Part shown: one piece after another, positions 2,757 through 10,347 of the stretch
Layout of the letters: the number at the start of each line of letters is the position of its first letter
Position numbering within the stretch: position 1 is the stretch's first letter
From: an uncultured bacterium
Lineage (GTDB): Bacteria; Abyssobacteria; SURF-5
Assembly (NCBI GenBank): GCA_964510165.1
Contig: CAZEBC010000072.1
Location: 1-10,347, forward strand
Reading direction: 5' to 3'
DNA length: 10,347 bases
The notes under the pieces: model-generated
The model's input: only the letters and a program-made list of their open reading frames with translations
The model's database searches: none
What the model was told of the DNA's origin: nothing
Translations under genes and position numbers: made by a program

Positions 2757-2873
2757 TGCCCCTGTATTTGTGGCAGTTCTTAGCGATTTCATGCTTTAGG
2801 TGGAAAGTTGTAACCTAATTATTTGCAGTTGGTTACGGAATGATGCGAAACATCGCAGAAGACCCTGGAATGT

Positions 2874-2915
2874 CTGGCAGTCAAAAGGTCGTGGGTTCGA
2901 TTCCCATCATCTCCA
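2874..2915 (+). mobile_element. 3' fragment of tRNA-Ala(GGC); probable attR core of an integrative element
   Basis: Anticodon loop CTGGCAG (2874-2880), 3' anticodon stem TCAAA, variable loop AGGTC, T arm GTGGG-TTCGATT-CCCAT, acceptor 3' strand CATCTCC with U70 (Ala G3:U70 determinant) and discriminator A at 2915, followed by CTA. The upstream bases (AATGT) cannot pair with TCAAA and no D arm or 5' acceptor strand is present. Confidence 0.85.
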
Positions 2916-2934
2916 CTACATAACTCCTCGCGTC

Positions 2935-2973
2935 GCGGCCACTTGGAAGAGCGCCCAAGTGGCCGCTTCCTTT
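2935..2973 (+). terminator. Rho-independent terminator
   Basis: Perfect 12-bp stem GCGGCCACTTGG (2935-2946) / CCAAGTGGCCGC (2955-2966), 8-nt loop, followed by TTCCTTT, about 20 nt after the tRNA 3' end. Confidence 0.7.
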
Positions 2974-3088
2974 GAGCCTGCCAGAACTCAATACGCCATC
3001 GCTGCGCTCTCACTTGCGCGGTCCAATCTGCTCATGCGCGCGGGCTTCGGCCCGCGCGCATGTGGTGAATGCAATCTTGCAGGCTCAA
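2972..3088. mobile_element. MITE-like miniature element with terminal inverted repeats and internal hairpin
   Basis: TTGAGCCTGCCAGA (2972-2985) and TCTTGCAGGCTCAA (3075-3088) are inverted repeats matching at 13/14 positions. Inside is a perfect 13-bp stem CATGCGCGCGGGC-TTCG-GCCCGCGCGCATG (3033-3062). No target-site duplication is evident. Confidence 0.5.
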
Positions 3089-3145
3089 CCAGGGCGGCTC
3101 CGACGGACAACCCGACCGGCCTGCTTGGGGGATGACGGGAGATTA

Positions 3146-3194: not shown

Positions 3195-4745
3195 ATGGGC
3201 GAATGGATAAACGGCTACCTTGCGAGGCTCCAGACATGCCGGCAGGAAAACCTCGCGGCGGGAGGGCAGGACCGTGTGGAGTTGCAGCACAGTCTTGGCA
3301 AGCTTACCGCGCGAGAGCGTATCGAATATCTGGCCGACCCCGGCACATTCGAGGAGCTTGGCTCACTCGTTCGCGAGTTTCGGGCGTTCCCGGACAGCGG
3401 AACCAAGCCGAGTCCCGGGGATGGTGTCGTCATGGGAATGGCCAAGGTGAACGGCAGGCCGGTCATGGTTTATTCCATGGATTTCACCGTGATGTCCGGC
3501 TCTTTCGGCGACCAGGGCGTATGGAAGATCGCCGAACTGGTTCAGATGGCGGGACAGGAACAGATGCCGATCATTGGCATTTTCGATTCCGCCGGAAGCC
3601 GTGTCAGCATTAAGAAGGGTTACGTCGGTCAGTTTGGCATCGCGCGTGTCCTCAAGAATTATTGTTATTATTCCGGGATAATTCCTCGAATCGCTCTGGT
3701 GCTGGGACCATGCACCGGACCGATGGCAAAGGTGCCTGTCCTGTCGGATTTCCTGATAATGAACAGCAAGACGGGGTTCTTGTGGCTAGGCGGTGAGGTC
3801 GAGTCCGAAGACGCAGGCACAGCCGATTTCCACATGACCAAATCCGGCCAGTGTCATCTTGTGGCTGACAACGACCAGGAAGCAATCGCCCTGTGCAAAA
3901 AACTGTTGGAGTTCATCCCGCAGAACTGCTGGGGGCGGCCTGCCGCGATCGAGCCTACCGACGACCCGAACAGGAGAGAAGAAGCCCTGCTCGACGTGAT
4001 GCCCGATAATGTCCGGTTCACGTATGACATCCATGAGATTCTCGACCTGATCGTGGACGACGGAGAGTTCTTTGAATTGCAGGAGGACTTCTCCCCCAAC
4101 CTGGTCATCGGCTTCGCGCGGTTCGATGGTATGGTTGCCGGCATCGCTGCGAGCAATCCGGACGAGATGAGCGGCATCATGGAGCCGAACGCCTCCGACA
4201 AGTACGACCGGTTTCTGATGTTTCTCGACTGCTTCAATATTCCGTTGGTCACCATATCCGACACGACGGCGTTTCCCCCAGGCGACCGATGGGAGCGCAT
4301 GGGGGTCATTCGCCACGGCGCCAAGAACCTCCACGGCTATTCTCACCTGACGACCCAGAAGGTCACCATGGTGTTGCGCCGCTCCTACGGCGGCTCCAAC
4401 ATCGTCATGGGATGCAGCAAGATGGGGCCCGATTTCATCTACGGCTGGCCGACCACGGAGTTCGCGCCCACCGGTCCGGAGATGATGGTGCACGCCGTCT
4501 TCCATAAGGAACTGGCCAAGGCGAAGGAAGCGGGTAATTATGACGAGCTTTTCGAATTTTATGTAAGCATCCTTCGCGAGATGTTCAGTGTGATGACGAT
4601 GGGCAAGCTCTTCACCACGTGGTACACAGTCCACGAGGTAATCGACCCCAGGGATACGCGTTCTCGCATCATCAAGGCGCTCCACGCATCGGTCAACAAG
4701 CAGGAACAGTTGCCGGAGAAGAGACGCTACATCAAACCCGCATGA
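3195..4745 (+). CDS. Acyl-CoA carboxylase carboxyltransferase beta subunit (PccB/MccB superfamily), paralog 1
   Basis: 516 aa. Motifs QHSLGKLTARERIEYLADPGTFEE, GDGVVMG, DFTVMSGSFG, GFARFDG, RRSYGGS, WPTTEFAPTGPE and EVIDPRDTR. RBS AGGAG. The N-domain GG motif is altered (GPCTGPMAK). Confidence 0.92.
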   Translation: MGEWINGYLARLQTCRQENLAAGGQDRVELQHSLGKLTARERIEYLADPGTFEELGSLVREFRAFPDSGTKPSPGDGVVMGMAKVNGRPVMVYSMDFTVMSGSFGDQGVWKIAELVQMAGQEQMPIIGIFDSAGSRVSIKKGYVGQFGIARVLKNYCYYSGIIPRIALVLGPCTGPMAKVPVLSDFLIMNSKTGFLWLGGEVESEDAGTADFHMTKSGQCHLVADNDQEAIALCKKLLEFIPQNCWGRPAAIEPTDDPNRREEALLDVMPDNVRFTYDIHEILDLIVDDGEFFELQEDFSPNLVIGFARFDGMVAGIAASNPDEMSGIMEPNASDKYDRFLMFLDCFNIPLVTISDTTAFPPGDRWERMGVIRHGAKNLHGYSHLTTQKVTMVLRRSYGGSNIVMGCSKMGPDFIYGWPTTEFAPTGPEMMVHAVFHKELAKAKEAGNYDELFEFYVSILREMFSVMTMGKLFTTWYTVHEVIDPRDTRSRIIKALHASVNKQEQLPEKRRYIKPA

Positions 4746-4758
4746 CTGTCTTGTAACT

Positions 4759-4810
4759 GCAGGGGCGCCCCAGCGGGGGTGCCCGGGCGGCCACAGAGGG
4801 CCGCCCCTAC
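4759..4810. repeat. Inverted doublet of GTAG-type REP palindromes
   Basis: + strand: GCAG-GGGCGCCCC-AGCG-GGGGTGCCC (4759-4784). - strand: GTAG-GGGCGGCC-CTCTGT-GGCCGCCC (4810-4785). The two copies abut tail to tail. Confidence 0.7.
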
Positions 4811-4858
4811 AACCGATGACCGGATTATGGGATAGTCTCGCATGGGAGGCTTTGAGAC

Positions 4859-6415
4859 ATGGGCGACAGAATGAAAGAAGCGATTGAGCGCTACCGGGCA
4901 ATCCAGGAGAAGAACAGGCTTGGCGGCGGCATTGAACATGTCGAGCGGCAACACGGCCGCGGCAAGCTGACCGCCCGGGAAAGAATCGACGTCCTCATTG
5001 ACCAGGGCACATTCGCCGAACTGGGAACGTGTGTGAACACCACCGGCGTCCGCATTGACGGCCGCTTCACGGACGCGCCGTGCGATGGCGCCGTCGTGGG
5101 CACAGCCAAGGTTCACGGCCGCACCATCATGATCTACTCGTCAGATTTCACCGTCCTCGGCGGCTCCATCGGCCAGCAGCATATCATGAAATATTGTCGC
5201 GTGCTGGAAATGGCGGCCGCATGGAACATCCCGCTGGTGAACCTCCTCGACTCTTCCGGCGGCCGGCTGGGGTATCGTGACGTGGCAATGGCCGGCATAG
5301 ATTGGATGTTCCGCCTCGAGTCGATATACTCGGGCGTCATCCCGCAGATTACCGTCCTGATGGGACCATGCATCGCAGGCGGCGCCTATCTGCCGACGCT
5401 TTGCGATTTCCTGTTGATGAGCCGAGTTTCCGGAAACCTGTGGCTCGGCGGCCCGCGCCAGACGGCCGCGGCCACCTCCGAGAAGATTGACCGCAATGTC
5501 GGCGGCGCCGATTATCACATGCAACTGAGCGGCACCTGCGACCTGGTCGGCGAGGACGACAAAGAAACCATCCTGGCCTGCCGCGAACTGCTCCGATATC
5601 TGCCGCAGAATTATAAGGAGAAACCGTCCGCATGGGAGAGGACCGACGACGCCAACCGCGACGTGCCAAGACTGCTTGACATCGTGCCCGATGACTTCAA
5701 TAAGACCTATGATATGCACGAGGTCATCCGGGAAGTGGTTGACAATGGCGACTTCTTTGAGATCAAGAACGAATACGCCAAGCAGCTCATCGCCGGCTAC
5801 TGCCGCTTCAACGGCGAAGTGGTCGGCCTGGTCGCCAACAACCCCGCCGAACCCGGCAGCATCTATGAAATCAACGCCTGCGACAAGTATTATCGCTTCC
5901 TGCAGACCCTCGACGCCTACAGCACTCCGTTGGTGAACCTGGTGGACACGCCGCCCACAGTTCCCGGCGAAAAAGAAGAAGCGAAGGGGCTGTTGCGGCA
6001 TATCGGCAAGATAGTGGACGTATACGCGACGGCCACCATCCCGAAGATAGGCGTGGTCCTGCGCGAGGCCTACTCCGACGCCGGCAGCATGATCGTGAGC
6101 GGAGTGAAAGGGTTGGGCGCAGACCTGACCTATGCATGGCCCATCGCCCGGTTCGCGGTTGAGGCTTCCGAATTGGACTACCGAAAAGTGTATGACAAGG
6201 GCATCGAGGAAGACGCCTATGAGGAATACCTGAACCGCTCACGCGAAAAGGTAGACGTTTTCGACGCGGCTCACTCTTGGACCGCCCAGGTGGTTGACGA
6301 GATCATCGAGCCTAAGGATACCCGCAAGAAGATTATCGAAGCGCTTGATATTGTCAGGAACAAGACGGAGAAACTCCCGCCCAGAGCCAAACAGCACGGC
6401 TCTTGTCCCACATGA
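4859..6415 (+). CDS. Acyl-CoA carboxylase carboxyltransferase beta subunit (PccB/MccB superfamily), paralog 2
   Basis: 518 aa. Motifs RQHGRGKLTARERIDVLID, DFTVLGGSIG, LLDSSGGRL, GPCIAGGAYLP (MccB-like xAGGAY), VDEIIEPKDTR and C-terminal KQHGSCP. RBS GGGAGG at 4844-4849. The C-domain YGG motif is altered (REAYSDAG). Confidence 0.92.
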   Translation: MGDRMKEAIERYRAIQEKNRLGGGIEHVERQHGRGKLTARERIDVLIDQGTFAELGTCVNTTGVRIDGRFTDAPCDGAVVGTAKVHGRTIMIYSSDFTVLGGSIGQQHIMKYCRVLEMAAAWNIPLVNLLDSSGGRLGYRDVAMAGIDWMFRLESIYSGVIPQITVLMGPCIAGGAYLPTLCDFLLMSRVSGNLWLGGPRQTAAATSEKIDRNVGGADYHMQLSGTCDLVGEDDKETILACRELLRYLPQNYKEKPSAWERTDDANRDVPRLLDIVPDDFNKTYDMHEVIREVVDNGDFFEIKNEYAKQLIAGYCRFNGEVVGLVANNPAEPGSIYEINACDKYYRFLQTLDAYSTPLVNLVDTPPTVPGEKEEAKGLLRHIGKIVDVYATATIPKIGVVLREAYSDAGSMIVSGVKGLGADLTYAWPIARFAVEASELDYRKVYDKGIEEDAYEEYLNRSREKVDVFDAAHSWTAQVVDEIIEPKDTRKKIIEALDIVRNKTEKLPPRAKQHGSCPT

Positions 6416-6468
6416 ACCGGATTCAAAACCGGGCGCGAAGCCGAGGTTGACACGACAGGAGGTCCCGA

Positions 6469-7335
6469 ATGAGTGACAAAGCCATACTCACATGCGCGCT
6501 TACCGGCGTCCTGACCAATCCCAATATGGGCAACATCCCGGTCACGCCCGAACAGATGGCCGAGGCCGCCGAACAAGCCTGGAACGAGGGCGCCGTCATT
6601 GTACACTGCCATTTCCGCGACCAGAGGCCGGGAATGGGCGCGTATCCCACTTGGGACGTTGCCATCGTCAAATCCATTATAGAGGCCATTCGCGCGCGAG
6701 TACCGGGCATCATCATCAACCAGAGCACCGGCGTGGTCGGACCCGACATCTCCGGCCCCGTGGCCTGTCTGGAAGCGATCAAACCCGAGATGGCCGCCTG
6801 CAACGCGGGGTCATTGAACTATCTGAAACTCAAGGAGGACGGCACGTGGGCCTGGCCGCCGATGATGTTCGATAATCCGGTCGAGAAGGTCAAGGCCTTC
6901 CTCGACGTGATGACTGCCAACGATGTCGTCCCCGAGTTCGAGTGTTTCGACTCCGGCATCGTCCGCAGTGTGGCCTTATACAAGAAGGCAGGCATGTTCC
7001 GAGGTGACCCGCACATCTCGTTGGTAATGGGCGTTGCGAGCGGCCAGCCGGCAAAACCGGAATGGATACCGCTCCTCAAGAACGAAATGCTGCCCGGCAC
7101 GCATTGGCAGGTGATCTGCGTCGGCCGGAAGGAAGTATGGGACCTCCAGCGAAAGGCGCTCGAAGAGGGCGGCAATGTGCGTACCGGCCTGGAGGACACC
7201 TTCTACCTTCCAAATGGCGAGAAGGCACGGAGTAACGGGGAACTGGTCGAAGCCCTGGCCAAAATCACGCGCGAAGTGGGTCGCGAAATCGCAACCGCAG
7301 AGGAAGCCAGCGCCATCCTCGGGATCAAGAGATAA
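6469..7335 (+). CDS. Beta-keto acid cleavage enzyme (BKACE / DUF849, 3-keto-5-aminohexanoate cleavage enzyme family)
   Basis: 288 aa. N-terminal ILTCALTG...IPVTPEQMA, Zn-binding HxH (HCHFRD, 6604-6612), NQSTG, PEMAACNAGSLN, PEFECFDSG, GNVRTGLEDT and REIATAEEA. RBS AGGAGG at 6457-6462. Confidence 0.92.
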   Translation: MSDKAILTCALTGVLTNPNMGNIPVTPEQMAEAAEQAWNEGAVIVHCHFRDQRPGMGAYPTWDVAIVKSIIEAIRARVPGIIINQSTGVVGPDISGPVACLEAIKPEMAACNAGSLNYLKLKEDGTWAWPPMMFDNPVEKVKAFLDVMTANDVVPEFECFDSGIVRSVALYKKAGMFRGDPHISLVMGVASGQPAKPEWIPLLKNEMLPGTHWQVICVGRKEVWDLQRKALEEGGNVRTGLEDTFYLPNGEKARSNGELVEALAKITREVGREIATAEEASAILGIKR

Positions 7336-7363
7336 CATCCCCTGCGAGCGAGGAGGAATCGTC

Positions 7364-8149
7364 ATGACCGAAACCCGGGAAGTTCTCTACAATGTCAAGG
7401 ACAGGGTGGCCACCATCACTATAAATCGGCCCGAACGCCGCAACGCACTCAATCCGAATGTCATGGCCGGTTTGAACAGATATCTCGACGAGGCGGGCGC
7501 GGACCCCAGTGTGTCGGCGGTCGCCTTGACGGGCGCCGGCGGGAATTTCTGCTCAGGCGCCGATTTGGGCGGCAGTTTCGGCGGCGAACAGTCCTACCTC
7601 GATATGCATTATGACCGCGGCCGCTACGTCGAGTTGTTGCTGAAAATGAACGCATGCAAGAAGCCGATCCTGGCCGCCATCGAAGGCTACTGCCTGGCCG
7701 GAGGAATGGGGCTTTGCCTGTCCAGCGACGTGGCCATCGCCAGCGAGGACGCTCAGTTTGGCCTGCCCGAGATCAAGCGCGGCCTGTGGCCATACATGGT
7801 CACGGCAGCCCTCATCCGCAACGTGGGCCGAAAAAAGGCCGCCGAACTGTGCATGACCGGCGACCGCATCTCCGCCGCCGAAGCGGAGCGCATCGGCATA
7901 ATCAACTATTCCGTGCCCAAAGACCAGTTCCAGGAAAGGGTGTCGAGGATGGCGAAGAAGCTGGCTTCGTCCAGCCCGGCCATCATGGGTCTTGGCAAAT
8001 CCTCGTTCTATCGCATAGCGGACATGACCATGTACGACGCCCTGAGCTACCTCCATTCGCAGTTGACGATCAACACCCAGGTGGAGGACTTGATGGAAGG
8101 CATCGCGGCCTTCATGGAGAAACGCGAGCCGGTATGGAAAGGGAGATAG
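7364..8149 (+). CDS. Enoyl-CoA hydratase/isomerase (crotonase) family protein, LiuC/AtuE-like
   Basis: The true start is probably ATG 7364 (RBS AGGAGG at 7351-7356), giving 261 aa; the track's start at 7175 overlaps the BKACE gene. Motifs ITINRPERRNAL, FCSGADL, KPILAAIEGYCLAGGMGL, FGLPEIKRG and EGIAAFMEKREPVWKGR. Confidence 0.92.
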   Translation: MTETREVLYNVKDRVATITINRPERRNALNPNVMAGLNRYLDEAGADPSVSAVALTGAGGNFCSGADLGGSFGGEQSYLDMHYDRGRYVELLLKMNACKKPILAAIEGYCLAGGMGLCLSSDVAIASEDAQFGLPEIKRGLWPYMVTAALIRNVGRKKAAELCMTGDRISAAEAERIGIINYSVPKDQFQERVSRMAKKLASSSPAIMGLGKSSFYRIADMTMYDALSYLHSQLTINTQVEDLMEGIAAFMEKREPVWKGR

Positions 8150-8161
8150 GAGCAAGCGAAT

Positions 8162-8410
8162 ATGAGCAAAACCATCGAAGTGAGAGCGCCCATGTCCGGC
8201 GTATTCTACAGGAGGCCGGCTCCCGATCAGCCGCCTTACGTCGAGGTGGGCGATCTGGTCAAAAAGAAGCAGATTCTGGCGCTTCTTGAAACCATGAAAG
8301 TCTTTCAGAAGATCAAATCGCCGGCGGCAGGCACAATCGCCCAGATCGTCGTTCAGAATGAAACCCCGCTGTCGGACGGCGACCTCATGTTTGTCATCAA
8401 TGCCGAATGA
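8162..8410 (+). CDS. Stand-alone biotin carboxyl carrier protein (biotinyl domain only)
   Basis: 82 aa. VRAPMSGVFYRRPAPDQPPYVEVGDLV and biotinylation motif ETMKV (Lys codon 8297-8299). RBS AGGAG overlaps the upstream stop codon. Confidence 0.9.
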   Translation: MSKTIEVRAPMSGVFYRRPAPDQPPYVEVGDLVKKKQILALLETMKVFQKIKSPAAGTIAQIVVQNETPLSDGDLMFVINAE

Positions 8411-8439
8411 ACTGCTCGCAAATACATTTTGCTGCTCAT

Positions 8440-8463
8440 GTAAGGGCGGTTCGCCAACCGCCC
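8440..8463 (+). repeat. GTAG-type REP-like palindrome
   Basis: GTAA-GGGCGGTT-CGCC-AACCGCCC, the same architecture (tetranucleotide plus GGGCG stem) as the copies at 4759-4810. Confidence 0.6.
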
Positions 8464-8476
8464 GTCGCCACCATCT

Positions 8477-8502
8477 GTCATTCCCGCGAAAACAGGAATC
8501 CA
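8477..8502 (+). repeat. GTCATTCCCGCG...GGAATCCA-type short palindromic repeat (CGTC-REP / dRS3-like), degenerate
   Basis: GTCATTCCCGCGAAAACAGGAATCCA differs at two positions from the widespread GTCATTCCCGCGAAAGCGGGAATCCA repeat as I recall it. Confidence 0.65.
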
Positions 8503-8564
8503 TAGTGATCGCGGCACGAAATATGCTCAACCGTTTGCGAGGCTATATATAAGGACCACAACCG

Positions 8565-9932
8565 ATGTTCTCAAAAATATTGATAGCCAACCGGGGCGAG
8601 ATCGCGCTCCGAATCGAGCGCGCCGCAAAGGCGCTCGGCATAAAGACCGTGGCCGTGTATTCCGAGGCCGACAGGGACAGCCTGCACGTTCGTCATGCCG
8701 ACGAGAGCGTGTGCATAGGGCCGCCCATGAGCGCGAAGAGCTATCTGAACGTCGACGCCATCATCAAAGCCGCAATGAACACACGCGCCGAAGCCGTTCA
8801 TCCGGGTTACGGCTATCTGGCCGAAAACGGAGACTTCGCCCGCGCCTGCAAGGACGCAGGCCTTGTGTTCATCGGCCCAACACCCGAAAACCTCGACCTC
8901 GCCGGTGATAAGCTCAAAGCCAAATCGCTCGTGAGCCGCGCTGGAGTGCCTATCATCCCGTCGAGTCTCAACGGAGTGACCTCGATTGACCACGCCGTTG
9001 CGTCCGCCGCTCAGTTAGGCTATCCGGTGATGATCAAGGCGGCAGCCGGAGGCGGCGGCCGGGGGATTCGTGTCTGCCCTGATGAAGCCACTCTCAGGGA
9101 GGAGTTTGGTGTGGCGAGGGCGGAGGTGAAAGCGGCATTCGGCGACGATTCGTTGTATATCGAAAAGTGCCTCGTGCATCCGCGCCACATAGAGTTTCAG
9201 GTATTGGCCGATTCCTTCGGCAATATCATCCATCTGGGCGAAAGGGAGTGCTCCATTCAGCGGCGCTACCAAAAACTGATCGAGGAAGCGCCCTCCCCCG
9301 CCATGACGCCCGAACTGCGAGAGGCCATGGGACAAGCTGCCATCAAAGCGGCCGGGGCAGTCAACTACTTCAACGCCGGCACCGTGGAATTCCTGCTCGA
9401 CCAGGACGGCAAGTTCTATTTCATGGAGATAAACGCCCGCATCCAGGTGGAACATCCGGTCACGGAAATGGTCACGGGAGTTGACCTGGTGCAGGAACAG
9501 ATTCGTTTGGCCGACGGCGGCAGACTGGATTACAGCTTCAACGACATCAATCTGAACGGCTGGGCCATCGAGTGTCGGATCAACGCCGAGAATCCGGACT
9601 TCAACTTCGCGCCCTCGCCGGGCAAAATCGAGGAATATCGCCCCCCGGGCGGCGCCGGCGTCAGGCTTGACACTCACCTGTATCAGGGATACGAGTTGCC
9701 CATATATTATGATTCGCTGGTGGCCAAACTCATCGCGCATGGTGAGACCAGGGACGCCGCCATCCGCGTACTCAAGAAAGCCCTTCAGGAGTTTGTCATT
9801 CAGCCGATTAAGACAACCATCCCCCTGTATCTTGAGATTGTCGATGACCCCGAATTCCGCAAAGGCGATATCCATACCGGCTATATCAAGAAATTCGTCC
9901 CGGATGAAGACGATGACGACGATGACGAGTAA
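8565..9932 (+). CDS. accC: Biotin carboxylase subunit (AccC-type, ATP-grasp)
   Basis: 455 aa. MFSKILIANRGEIALRI, HPGYGYLAEN, YPVMIKAAAGGGGRGIR, ERECSIQRRYQKLIEEAPS, FMEINARIQVEHPVTE, ECRINAE and YYDSLVAKLI. No fused BT or biotinyl domain. It is probably a pathway-specific AccC-like paralog rather than the fatty-acid synthesis copy. Confidence 0.93.
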   Translation: MFSKILIANRGEIALRIERAAKALGIKTVAVYSEADRDSLHVRHADESVCIGPPMSAKSYLNVDAIIKAAMNTRAEAVHPGYGYLAENGDFARACKDAGLVFIGPTPENLDLAGDKLKAKSLVSRAGVPIIPSSLNGVTSIDHAVASAAQLGYPVMIKAAAGGGGRGIRVCPDEATLREEFGVARAEVKAAFGDDSLYIEKCLVHPRHIEFQVLADSFGNIIHLGERECSIQRRYQKLIEEAPSPAMTPELREAMGQAAIKAAGAVNYFNAGTVEFLLDQDGKFYFMEINARIQVEHPVTEMVTGVDLVQEQIRLADGGRLDYSFNDINLNGWAIECRINAENPDFNFAPSPGKIEEYRPPGGAGVRLDTHLYQGYELPIYYDSLVAKLIAHGETRDAAIRVLKKALQEFVIQPIKTTIPLYLEIVDDPEFRKGDIHTGYIKKFVPDEDDDDDDE

Positions 9933-9975
9933 ACACAGTCATCATGAAAAGACCGTCAGGGGGGAACCAAGAAGG

Positions 9976-10347
9976 ATGACCGGCGCGGTCACTGTAGACT
10001 GTTTCGACGACCTCGGCGCATATGCGGAACGCTACAGGGCCGTCCCGGAAGCGCAACATGTCTTCGTGTCGCCGCGCTGGATGCAGACGTGGAGGCAATC
10101 CTTCACACCAAGGGACGAACTCTGCATATGTGCGATTAAACTGTGCGAAAGAACCATCGGCGTCGCCCCCCTTTGCATCAATGGCGCTGCAGCCTCATTC
10201 ATAGGCGATCCCGAGGTCTTCGATTACATGGATTTTATGGTGGCGCAAGAGCATGAAAAGGAATTCTACTCCGCGCTCCTCGACGAGTTGAGGAGAAGGC
10301 GCGTAACCGAACTTGATCTGCGGTGTCTGCGTCCGGAGTCAACTGTG
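9976..10347 (+). CDS. GNAT-family protein, CelD/BcsL-like, 3'-truncated
   Basis: Translated by hand; open from ATG 9976 to the window end: MTGAVTVDCFDDLGAYAERYRAVPEAQHVFVSPRWMQTWRQSF...IGVAPLCINGAAASFIGDPEVFDYMDFMV...ELDLRCLRPESTV. The F.SP.W...W, G.APL and DY.DF patterns are typical of this family. Confidence 0.75.
   Translation, partial: MTGAVTVDCFDDLGAYAERYRAVPEAQHVFVSPRWMQTWRQSFTPRDELCICAIKLCERTIGVAPLCINGAAASFIGDPEVFDYMDFMVAQEHEKEFYSALLDELRRRRVTELDLRCLRPESTV

Follow-up and report, generated by a model that had tools for sequence, protein, structure and literature searches.

A 3-methyl branch blocks beta-oxidation of an acyl chain and can be removed by the beta-decarboxymethylation route. 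The locus analyzed here raises the question of what is accomplished by an operon with an unusual two-part carboxyltransferase and an enzyme that cleaves beta-keto acids (BKACE), probably at the point where known pathways have a lyase.

Organization of the operon

The window, that is, the whole stretch of 10,347 nucleotides that was analyzed, covers the opening 10347 bases of a contig that is 17503 bases long. Six genes, all on the + strand, occupy positions 3195-9932 in the order CT1-CT2-BKACE-crotonase-BCCP-biotin carboxylase (BC). The co-oriented arrangement with short spacers described in the initial annotation was confirmed for all six; the spacers measure 113, 53, 28, 12, and 154 nt in this order, and a simple scan of the gaps found no strong + strand terminator-like site between the genes. 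The features are as follows.

3195..4745, + strand: CT1, carboxyltransferase paralogue 1, 516 aa (PF01039, 371 bits)
4859..6415, + strand: CT2, carboxyltransferase paralogue 2, 518 aa (PF01039, 362 bits)
6469..7335, + strand: BKACE, 288 aa (PF05853, 270 bits)
7364..8149, + strand: crotonase of the AtuE/LiuC/ThnL type, 261 aa (PF00378, 200 bits)
8162..8410, + strand: BCCP, small biotin carboxyl carrier protein, 82 aa (PF00364, 68 bits)
8565..9932, + strand: BC, biotin carboxylase of the ATP-dependent half-reaction, 455 aa (TIGR00514, accC)
9976..10347, + strand: GNAT/FemAB-like acyltransferase gene, 5' part, continuing past the window (ORF list; tblastn against the L003 orthologue)

BCCP bears a Met-Lys biotinylation motif (ETMKV) and scored 83.4 bits on NF005457 (cut-off 87). 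BC contains three BC Pfam domains and scored 664.5 bits on TIGR00514, above the cut-off of 626.5; this match is informative on fold and half-reaction but not on the acceptor. The operon extends beyond the window end with the GNAT gene, a FabK/NMO-like gene, a gene whose product is a metal-binding protein (TIGR03084), and another GNAT gene, those 3' of the first GNAT being identified by Pfam and NCBIfam. In tblastn the first GNAT matched the L003 orthologue as two pieces in two frames, and one of the two GNATs looks frameshifted here. Acyl-CoA dehydrogenase and acyl-CoA ligase genes were found neither in the operon nor elsewhere on the 17.5-kb contig, which counts against the explanation favored below.

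The carboxyltransferase pair

CT1 and CT2 are about 40% identical and form sister clades in the tree. The best solved relatives of CT1 are PCC-beta/MmdA/12S proteins (381 bits), with MCC/GCC beta subunits reaching only 148-167 bits; the best PDB match of CT2 (392 bits) is 1x0u, deposited as a hypothetical methylmalonyl-CoA decarboxylase alpha subunit. Both proteins fall among the PCC/12S-like CTs, separated by a branch of 1.1 from the GCC-like CTs. By score and tree position, the pair is of the propionyl-CoA carboxylase (PCC) lineage and not of the MCC/GCC lineage, which is a new point. Membership in the MCC/GCC clade, as expected of an Atu/Liu-type pathway, was found for neither protein. All gamma-carboxylating or gamma-decarboxylating CTs are, to our knowledge, of the MCC/GCD type. 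Since CT1 and CT2 are of the PCC lineage, gamma-carboxylation would be assigned to them by analogy and not by homology. The PCC/12S type is alpha-carboxylating, and this lineage also counts against the favored explanation.

The hallmark of PCC-beta/MmdA proteins is the presence of both Gly motifs in one chain, AGG in the N-domain and YGGA in the C-domain; neither CT1 nor CT2 has this combination. The N-domain Gly-Gly motif of CT1 is gone (GPCTGP), with a deletion of about 9 residues, and its C-domain YGGS is retained. CT2 retains the N-domain motif (IAGGAY) and has a C-domain motif broken by a 2-residue insertion (AY-SD-AGS). These states are constant in 56/56 CT1 orthologues, and GPCIAGGAY is present in 51 of 52 CT2 orthologues. 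Two canonical PCC/transcarboxylase-type CTs of the same genome retain both Gly motifs; they scored 828-869 bits on TIGR01117 (cut-off 998.8), compared with 427 and 456 bits for CT1 and CT2. Because the degenerate motifs of the pair are complementary, the composite CT2(N)/CT1(C) site looks to be the sole intact one per pair, which is also a new point.

Crotonase and BKACE

The crotonase starts at ATG 7364, preceded by GAGGAGG. Gly116 takes the place of crotonase Glu144 and Glu136 corresponds to Glu164, the two lying 20 residues apart in conserved motifs; the same G/E signature was found in 41/49 crotonase genes lying at most 1.5 kb from a BKACE gene. According to PMC13689101, AtuE, LiuC, and ThnL have lost the Glu144 base and hydrate enoyl-CoAs whose beta-carbon is branched and which carry a free carboxylate. 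By that description, the crotonase matches the (alkyl)glutaconyl-CoA hydratase type without the Glu144 general base. Its best solved relative is 3-hydroxypropionyl-CoA dehydratase.

BKACE scored 270.4 bits on PF05853 (cut-off 24.8), with a match that spans positions 1-274 of the profile. When aligned residue by residue with Kce (2y7d), it retains HxH, STG, NAGSLN, PExE, and RxGxED; HxH, the catalytic Glu, and RxGxED are presumably the Zn-binding and catalytic motifs, as the Kce literature would have it. A neutral Leu occupies the position of the Kce Glu that we take to bind the amino group. The named equivalogs (the Kce, 3-oxoadipate, and 3,5-dioxohexanoate enzymes) were rejected as identities for this BKACE, all profile scores being below cut-off: 198.8 bits on NF052387 (cut-off 382), 164.4 on NF053568 (cut-off 350), and 162.9 on NF053538 (cut-off 430). 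One intact-looking BC-BCCP-BKACE fusion protein (P0007) was detected. Our literature search found nothing linking BKACE to MCC or GCC pathways or to a biotin carboxylase neighborhood. PMC11961710 reports a synthetic cycle in which malonate semialdehyde is cleaved by BKACEs together with acetyl-CoA, and describes acetoacetate and acetyl-CoA, both products of HMG-CoA lyase, as bound in the solved BKACE structure PDB 9HNF.

Conservation of the gene neighborhood

The neighborhood survey called for by the initial annotation covered 28 informative CT-pair loci, each extending 5 kb or more to either side of the pair, and bore out the co-conservation: BKACE lies beside the CT pair in 23 loci and is not nearby in the other five, and an operon-type crotonase is present in 19. 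BCCP was found in 24 loci, BC in 23, acyl-CoA dehydrogenases in 18, a FabK/NMO-like gene in 13, TetR in 11, and an acyl-CoA ligase in 10. Many loci come from related genomes, and the locus counts are not independent. The neighbors of the wider module are catabolic (ligases, dehydrogenases, TetR regulators, ABC uptake systems); PimCD-like acyl-CoA dehydrogenase pairs are located inside related clusters, and a CrtI-like flavoenzyme gene follows the ligase in L008 and L013. The conserved neighbor set contains no malonyl-CoA reductase-like gene, and no kinase or phosphatase genes were seen among the neighbors scanned. The two GNAT, FabK/NMO-like, and TIGR03084 genes after BC recur in the closest relatives (L003, L004, and L012), to which the GNATs are confined, the GNAT6 type being present in 3/28 informative loci.

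A second set of 54 loci, centered on BKACE and each reaching 5 kb or more in both directions, contains CT1/CT2 in 12 cases, one distant CT with a BC-BCCP alpha subunit in 34, a partial set in 2, and neither in 6. This BKACE subfamily thus stands beside biotin carboxylases in 46 full cases out of 54, and in 2 more partial ones. The distant CTs group with that of Rhodopseudomonas palustris JSC-3b, which scored 636 bits with the Pseudomonas aeruginosa geranyl-CoA carboxylase (GCC) beta subunit, 481 bits with MCC beta, and 243 bits with PCC-like chains; the JSC-3b operon reads ACAD-ACAD-GST-AraC-BKACE-ligase-CT-alpha-crotonase. The same BKACE subfamily adjoins a GCC-type enzyme in Rhodopseudomonas, Bradyrhizobium, and others. 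Judged by these alignments, the alternation of the CT pair and a GCC-type carboxylase beside one BKACE subfamily is a case of non-orthologous displacement.

Search for a lyase

HMG-CoA lyase was found neither in the window nor in the 97%-complete genome, and NF004283 was above cut-off in 0/5 family genomes carrying the cluster; the lack of this enzyme claimed in the initial annotation holds for the window, the whole genome, and 5/5 relatives. Three HMGL-like matches in the genome were examined as HMG-CoA lyase and rejected; they correspond to LeuA, CimA, and a PycB/OadA-like protein. A CitE/HpcH-type lyase gave no match above cut-off in the genome. The dedicated lyase (LiuE or AtuA) of an Atu/Liu-type pathway was likewise not found there, and none of the five CT matches in the genome belongs to the MCC/GCC clade. 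Elsewhere in the genome, and in 4/5 relatives, there is a gene with very distant similarity to AtuA (84.8 bits, 21% identity) that could encode the lyase. A true AtuA (PF07287, 553 bits) is encoded directly upstream of CT1 in L007, L019, and L035, and AtuA is present in 3/28 CT-pair loci. AtuA and BKACE occur together in four loci, so BKACE need not replace a lyase. The distant AtuA-like gene, the loci with both AtuA and BKACE, and the 5/28 loci without BKACE all count against the favored explanation. PF01144 CoA-transferase and acetoacetyl-CoA synthetase gave no match above cut-off in the genome; the lack of both, which leaves acetoacetate without a further step here, counts against it as well.

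A proposed route and its alternatives

By comparison with the Atu and Liu pathways, the operon probably removes 3-methyl branches from (isoprenoid-like) acyl-CoAs through a beta-decarboxymethylation route. Such a removal of beta-methyl branches had been suggested in the initial annotation and is the best-supported reading, given the BKACE co-conservation, the Gly/Glu signature of the crotonase, the pairing with GCC-type carboxylases, the lack of HMG-CoA lyase, and the true AtuA, acyl-CoA dehydrogenase pairs, and ligases seen in sister loci. Acyl-CoA dehydrogenases encoded elsewhere in the genome (in-cluster in sister loci) would supply a 3-methyl-2-enoyl-CoA. BC and BCCP would load carboxybiotin, and a CT1/CT2 hetero-oligomer would carboxylate the methyl group to give a 3-alkylglutaconyl-CoA, which the AtuE-type crotonase would hydrate to a 3-hydroxy-3-alkylglutaryl-CoA. 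Retro-aldol cleavage of the latter would generate acetyl-CoA and a free 3-oxo acid, and BKACE, drawing on this acetyl-CoA, would then turn the 3-oxo acid into acetoacetate and an acyl-CoA of reduced length. The substrate could be an isoprenoid-derived or other 3-methyl-branched acid, down to 3-methylcrotonyl-CoA.

The chances appear evenly balanced that BKACE performs both the retro-aldol cleavage and the subsequent step, since aldol addition of the two BKACE substrates to each other would give this tertiary alcohol and no lyase is recognizable in the genome. The joint proposal, that BKACE carries out retro-aldol cleavage and acyl transfer in one site and that gamma-carboxylation by CT1/CT2 arose independently within the PCC lineage, is more doubtful. 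If true, BKACE of this subfamily would accept 3-hydroxy-3-alkylglutaryl-CoA itself, release acyl-CoA and acetoacetate, and so supply the lyase step of Atu-type pathways where an organism has neither LiuE nor AtuA; CT1/CT2 would form an obligate hetero-hexamer in which each pair has a catalytic and a degenerate site, and vinylogous (gamma) carboxylation would have arisen independently inside the PCC lineage.

The closeness of the CTs to PCC-beta/MmdA/12S (381-392 bits) and their distance from MCC/GCC (148-167 bits) would suit a PCC/ACC-kind alpha-carboxylase acting on a saturated acyl-CoA, with BKACE and crotonase in other chemistry, for example, of the 3-hydroxypropionate or malonate-semialdehyde type. 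The 3-hydroxypropionyl-CoA dehydratase as best solved relative of the crotonase agrees with this, as does the cleavage of malonate semialdehyde with acetyl-CoA that is possible for BKACEs (PMC11961710). We nevertheless consider an alpha-carboxylase unlikely: two canonical CTs of the PCC/transcarboxylase type are already encoded in the genome (828-869 bits on TIGR01117, versus 427-456 for CT1/CT2), the crotonase has no Glu144 base, like AtuE and LiuC, the same BKACE subfamily pairs elsewhere with GCC-type carboxylases, and the conserved set is without a malonyl-CoA reductase-like gene. A leucine/isovalerate route, with CT1/CT2 in the place of MCC, the crotonase serving as 3-methylglutaconyl-CoA hydratase, and BKACE as an analogue of HMG-CoA lyase, would yield acetoacetate and acetyl-CoA, the two HMG-CoA lyase products described in PMC11961710 as ligands in BKACE PDB 9HNF; the genome also has neither an MCC/GCC-clade CT nor an HMG-CoA lyase. 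This route is improbable, however, as the sister-cluster CTs in Bradyrhizobium and Rhodopseudomonas are nearer to GCC than to MCC, the AtuA, CrtI-like enzyme, and PimCD-like dehydrogenase pairs indicate larger substrates, and, with methyl as R, the usual reaction of BKACE amounts to a null exchange.

Two further explanations are highly unlikely. HpeCBA is an established biotin-dependent carboxylase that converts a non-CoA ketone into a beta-keto acid (PMC9618137), and a carboxylase of this kind (HpeCBA/XccBCA), acting on a free or phosphorylated methyl ketone, would account for BKACE without any lyase, the beta-keto acid being turned by BKACE into an acyl-CoA and acetoacetate. Hpe, however, has a single CT together with kinase and phosphatase genes, which are not among the neighbors scanned here; the conserved partners are CoA-ester enzymes (acyl-CoA dehydrogenases, crotonases, ligases), and the AtuE-type hydratase would be left without a role. 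The set of two GNAT, FabK/NMO-like, and TIGR03084 genes after BC, here and in L003, L004, and L012, would fit a biosynthetic operon in this lineage, in which an unusual acyl-CoA is attached to an amine or lipid by the two downstream GNATs; against this reading, the GNATs occur only in the closest relatives (GNAT6 type in 3/28 informative loci), one GNAT looks frameshifted here, and the wider module is located among catabolic genes (ligases, dehydrogenases, TetR, ABC uptake).

Comparison with known systems

The Pseudomonas cluster for acyclic terpene utilization (Atu, atuR-ABCDEFGH) encodes the geranyl-CoA carboxylase AtuC/AtuF, the hydratase AtuE, the dehydrogenase AtuD, and the ligase AtuH, alongside AtuA. 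The locus family resembles it in having TetR, acyl-CoA dehydrogenases, biotin carboxylase, a crotonase with Glu144 changed to Gly, and acyl-CoA ligase, as well as a true AtuA in four loci and a GCC-beta-like CT in sister clusters. It differs in having two PCC-lineage CT paralogues with separate BCCP and BC in place of an MCC/GCC-type alpha/beta enzyme, and in that BKACE is a constant member and AtuA usually absent (3/28 loci); the predicted products are acyl-CoA and acetoacetate, versus 3-oxoacyl-CoA and acetate. The Liu pathway (leucine/isovalerate) comprises MCC (LiuB/LiuD), the 3-methylglutaconyl-CoA hydratase LiuC, and the HMG-CoA lyase LiuE. The operon would share with it the carboxylate-hydrate-cleave logic, acetoacetate as an end product, and a hydratase without the Glu144 base. 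Unlike in the Liu pathway, no HMGL-type lyase was found in the genome or in 5/5 relatives, the CTs fall outside the MCC clade, and with a methyl side chain BKACE would serve a purpose only as the lyase.

HpeCBA/XccBCA are set apart by gene make-up, as the present locus has two CTs and no kinase or phosphatase among the neighbors scanned. ThnL (anaerobic naphthalene degradation, culture N47) is similar by signature, with Gly at Glu144 and Glu at Glu164; PMC13689101 describes how, in an anaerobic sulfate reducer, ThnL adds water to a glutaconyl-type enoyl-CoA and so gives a tertiary alcohol before C-C cleavage. The carboxylate on which ThnL acts differs in being ring-borne and in arising with no biotin carboxylase. 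With the BKACE family (Kce 2y7d; Paracoccus BKACE15, PDB 8rio), the operon enzyme shares the fold, the Zn and catalytic motifs, and the expected reaction of 3-oxo acid and acetyl-CoA to acyl-CoA and acetoacetate; it reached no more than 138 bits against Kce and 92 against BKACE15, has a neutral residue at the amino-binding Glu of Kce, and belongs to a subfamily defined by adjacency to biotin carboxylases. The AccD4/AccD5 carboxylase is the sole solved carboxylase we found with two different PCC-lineage CT subunits per hexamer, and CT1/CT2 matched its AccD4 and AccD5 chains with 242-313 bits. In that enzyme each of the two CTs is active, with different acyl-CoAs as substrates, and the AccE tether is required, whereas CT1 and CT2 show complementary motif losses that would leave one intact composite site per pair, served by BC and BCCP as separate small proteins.

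Organization of the operon and its flanks

The window covers the first 10347 of the 17503 bases of contig C72, part of a 4.17-Mb metagenome-assembled genome (MAG) of 325 contigs that is 97% complete with 1.6% contamination. The six-gene operon recognized in the initial annotation was confirmed and was found to extend past what that annotation saw, with four further genes on the forward strand. From the first carboxyltransferase gene (CT1) to the biotin carboxylase gene (BC), the intergenic spacers measure 113, 53, 28, 12, and 154 nt, and a simple scan found no strong forward-strand terminator-like site in the spacers between the six genes.

Features of the operon and its flanks
22-2709: SNF2-type helicase, 895 aa, upstream of the operon
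3195-4745, +: carboxyltransferase CT1
4859-6415, +: carboxyltransferase CT2
6469-7335, +: BKACE, a cleavage enzyme for beta-keto acids
7364-8149, +: crotonase; real start ATG at 7364, preceded by GAGGAGG
8162-8410, +: biotin carboxyl carrier protein (BCCP), 82 residues, ETMKV motif
8565-9932, +: biotin carboxylase (BC)
9976-10347 in the window, on to 11111 on the overlapping stretch L077, +: GNAT/FemAB-like gene, downstream of BC
Beyond the window, downstream, +: FabK/NMO-like flavoenzyme
Beyond the window, downstream, +: TIGR03084 DinB-type metal-binding protein (340 bits, cut-off 248)
Beyond the window, downstream, +: second GNAT

In the reading that we favour, the operon would remove beta-methyl branches by carboxylation, hydration, and cleavage, with BKACE at the cleavage stage. 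The GNAT/FemAB-like gene lies in two pieces in different frames when compared with its orthologue in another genome (L003), apparently through a frameshift, pseudogene formation or an assembly error. The TIGR03084 protein may be the counterpart of the Rv0976c-type gene in the accA2/accD2 cluster of mycobacteria, a likeness that carries no weight here.

The SNF2-type helicase is unrelated to the operon; it matches DISARM DrmD and further defence helicases in part, in each case far under the cut-off (161 bits versus 610). In the gap separating the operon from this helicase gene, a 52-base segment matching the tmRNA 3′ end (2867-2918; 18.9 bits, E 1.3e-05, under the gathering score), where ARAGORN called no tmRNA gene, is followed by a strong, GC-rich 12-bp hairpin (2935-2966). 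Together they have the appearance of an att remnant from island integration at ssrA. Spanning the tmRNA fragment, a 111-codon ORF (2800-3135) that could be assigned to no family is unlikely to be a true gene.

CT1 and CT2 carry complementary active-site motifs

CT1 and CT2 are both full-length PF01039 proteins with ~40% identity to one another. The nearest solved structures are propionyl-CoA carboxylase (PCC)-beta, MmdA, and 12S chains (381-392 bits), and the beta subunits of methylcrotonyl- and geranyl-CoA carboxylase (MCC and GCC) score only 148-167 bits. A maximum-likelihood analysis of 29 rows recovered the CT1 clade and the CT2 clade with full support and placed them as sisters at 96; both group with the PCC/12S-like CTs of the same genome, and a branch of 1.1 changes per site divides them from the GCC-like CTs. 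Three further CTs are encoded in the genome, one canonical beside methylmalonyl-CoA mutase, one 12S-like beside a 5S-like subunit, and one fused as BC-BCCP-CT; the carboxylase of the window is therefore not the housekeeping one. On contig C160 of this genome (L070, 2766-6089), the single-chain BC-BCCP-CT carboxylase of 1107 aa lies two ORFs, one of them of 125 codons, from a B12-binding radical SAM protein; the top match of the latter, to the TIGR04072 'lipid biosynthesis' model, is under the cut-off.

In a PCC-type hexamer, two partner chains form each site, one contributing its N domain and the other its C domain, and we take the CT motifs compared here to belong to the oxyanion holes. CT2 has its N-domain Gly-Gly motif intact, reading GPCIAGGAY in 51 of 52 orthologues, and has a two-residue insertion in the C-domain motif. 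CT1 has lost the N-domain motif, which reads GPC[TA]GP in 56/56 orthologues with a ~9-residue deletion nearby, and has kept the C-domain YGGS, likewise in 56/56. On that basis, a canonical site is predicted only as CT2(N)/CT1(C), and homo-oligomers of either CT would be without any. The complementary loss of motifs favours an oligomer that must contain both CTs and has half as many sites as usual.

BKACE and crotonase are co-conserved with the CT pair

Scanning with CT1 brought up 60 related loci of 67-89% identity, most of them from Desulfobacterales and Desulfarculaceae MAGs and others labelled Nitrospirales, Dehalococcoidia, Gammaproteobacteria, and Candidatus Poribacteria. CT1 and CT2 are complete and adjacent in 53/60, the others being cut or partial. 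We took as informative the 28 loci that had 5 kb or more on both sides; they come partly from related genomes and the counts are of non-independent events. Co-conservation of BKACE and crotonase with the CT pair, which the initial annotation had named as a check, was observed in 23 loci for BKACE and 19 for the operon-type crotonase, together with BCCP in 24 and BC in 23. Acyl-CoA dehydrogenases (18 loci), FabK/NMO-like proteins (13), TetR (11), acyl-CoA ligase (10), a second, PaaG-like crotonase (9), and TIGR03084-like proteins (4) are also present, and tblastn detected a true AtuA in 3/28. The acyl-CoA dehydrogenases are paired, one pair type being most like the PimC/PimD large and small subunits; in two loci the ligase is followed by a CrtI/carotenoid-isomerase-like flavoenzyme. 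BKACE orthologues occur in 7/9 other genomes of the small family to which the source genome belongs and in the sole other genome of its class, and in 0/30 more distant genomes.

In one Desulfobacterales MAG (L054 and L101, both on chromosome record CP070694.1), CT1/CT2 with an amidase, NMO, and TIGR03084 are located ~135 kb from a crotonase-BKACE-NMO group; a BKACE may thus be encoded elsewhere even where none is close to the CT pair. In two Desulfarculaceae loci (L009, 1490-5545, and L010), the module adjoins a pair each of BcrAD/BadFG-type ATPases and HGD-D proteins, making up a set like that of a class I aryl-CoA reductase or a 2-hydroxyacyl-CoA dehydratase, which hints at a branched substrate in these loci possibly derived from an aromatic or alicyclic compound. 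In the closest relative (L002, 5844-9773), a TetR-GNAT-SDR-ThDP enzyme block stands immediately upstream of CT1; similar TetR, SDR, and ThDP genes are found on contig C87 of the source genome (L078, 7198-13019) beside an aminotransferase and PutA.

One BKACE subfamily is partnered by two kinds of carboxylase

Nine BKACE orthologues were aligned, and a scan with the alignment hit at least 600 stretches, at least 576 of them relatives. The best 80 of these were analysed; 79 were new, and 54 had at least 5 kb on each side of BKACE.

Carboxylase beside BKACE in 54 loci (from the best 80 of at least 576 relatives)
CT1/CT2 type: 12/54
One distant CT plus a BC-BCCP alpha subunit: 34/54
Partial: 2/54
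None within 9 kb: 6/54

Among the matches listed, the BKACE subfamily is 55-93% identical to the enzyme of the window, and the distant CTs all group with the CT of Rhodopseudomonas palustris JSC-3b. The scores of the latter are 636 bits for the beta subunit of Pseudomonas aeruginosa GCC, 481 for MCC beta, and 243 for PCC-like chains. Its operon has the order ACAD-ACAD-GST-AraC-BKACE-ligase-CT-alpha-crotonase. One BKACE subfamily thus partners either a GCC-clade carboxylase or CT1/CT2 in clusters that are otherwise alike, a non-orthologous displacement. Sister clusters are present in cultured Rhodopseudomonas, Bradyrhizobium, and Nannocystis strains.

A second displaced pair agrees with this pattern: a GST is found in alphaproteobacterial BKACE clusters (31 loci among the matches listed), and a TIGR03084/MDMPI-like protein is frequent in the remaining clusters (16 loci among the matches listed). 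Since both families include thiol-dependent maleylpyruvate isomerases, we suggest that they may serve in E/Z isomerisation of the enoyl-CoA.

Pfam scans of six candidate fusions showed truncated domains in five, which are probably run-on gene calls. The sixth, P0007 (954 aa, a single-member cluster), appeared intact and joins BC, BCCP, and BKACE, each as a complete domain, in a single polypeptide. It could represent a genuine fusion or the loss of a stop codon; a fusion would hint at close coupling of BKACE with the carboxylase.

The crotonase resembles AtuE and LiuC

The crotonase has Gly116 at the position of the general base Glu144 of canonical enoyl-CoA hydratase and, 20 residues on, Glu136 at that of Glu164 (G/E). 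Loss of the Glu144 base is known from AtuE and LiuC and is also shown by ThnL, all of which hydrate enoyl-CoAs with a branched beta-carbon; in LiuC, the free carboxylate of the substrate is thought to stand in for the base (excerpts of PMC13689101). The label 'LiuC/AtuE-like' given in the initial annotation is thus directly backed by the sequence, and by 41 G/E enzymes among the 49 crotonases located within 1.5 kb of BKACE in the matches listed (7 are E/E and 1 is N/F). The JSC-3b crotonase is again G/E.

The cleavage step

The absence of an HMG-CoA lyase, first remarked for the operon, holds genome-wide: the three HMGL-like genes encode LeuA, CimA, and a PycB/OadA-like protein. The cut-off of the HMG-CoA lyase model was exceeded in 0/5 family genomes with the cluster (92-98% complete) and in 3/14 controls, and no HpcH/CitE-type protein in the genome is over the cut-off. 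Another contig carries a gene with a very distant likeness to AtuA (84.8 bits, 21% identity to the true enzyme), which is also found in 4/5 relatives.

The operon BKACE has kept the Zn-binding and catalytic motifs, with Leu in place of the amino-binding Glu of Kce. A retro-aldol cleavage of 3-hydroxy-3-alkylglutaryl-CoA on the CoA side would give acetyl-CoA and a free 3-oxo acid. These are exactly the two substrates of BKACE, which would next yield a shortened acyl-CoA and acetoacetate. The retro-aldol step itself may be performed by BKACE or by an unrecognised lyase. True AtuA and BKACE occur together in four loci, which argues that the two are not simply interchangeable. As a possible outlet for acetoacetate, neither a PF01144 CoA-transferase nor acetoacetyl-CoA synthetase is over the cut-off in the genome.

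The genome encodes a second BKACE, 28% identical to that of the operon (L165, contig C76, 7361-8428). It is directly followed by a ThDP-dependent enzyme (8544-10259) at the contig end, a separate pairing.

Discussion

Points against chemistry of the Atu (acyclic terpene) type include the CT lineage, which predicts alpha-carboxylation, the absence of dehydrogenase and ligase from the operon of the window, and the missing outlet for acetoacetate. We nevertheless assign Atu-type chemistry to this enzyme despite its CT lineage, mainly because of the displacement seen around BKACE. If the inferred chemistry is true, the acceptor carbon (alpha or gamma) would not be readable from CT lineage. The CoA-ester context led us to drop an Hpe/Xcc-type ketone carboxylase. 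Also dropped were a natural CORE-like route (malonate semialdehyde plus acetyl-CoA) and 3-hydroxypropionate readings, no reductase being conserved and the crotonase being of AtuE type; the glutaryl/glutaconyl-CoA reading was likewise set aside, given the ATP-dependent BC and the GCC-type CT of the sister clusters.

Across the library covered, our search found no literature link of BKACE to MCC, GCC or the Atu/Liu (leucine/isovalerate) pathways; Bastard et al. (2014) or its supplements may note such a context. Carboxylase, biotin, and crotonase are absent from the main text of the NetSyn preprint on BKACE contexts.

Many Desulfobacterota MAGs contain the module, as do MAGs labelled Nitrospirales, Dehalococcoidia, and others. 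The breakdown of isoprenoid and other beta-methyl-branched acids by anaerobes is poorly known; such substrates include phytol, archaeal lipids, terpenes, and products of methylated aromatics. We also know of no biochemical demonstration that AtuA performs the cleavage in the Atu pathway. With its place retained next to carboxylases of both kinds, BKACE is a concrete and testable candidate for this cleavage, and the sister clusters in cultured strains make testing practical. Release of acetoacetate instead of acetate would keep both carbon units in a state from which a single CoA transfer could return them to metabolism; this would matter to energy-limited anaerobes.

The CT1/CT2 pair would be a new biotin carboxylase architecture. 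In the literature we found a single heteromeric CT core, the mycobacterial AccD4(2)AccD5(4), in which, unlike the composite site predicted here, both subunits are active (excerpts of PMC13012033).
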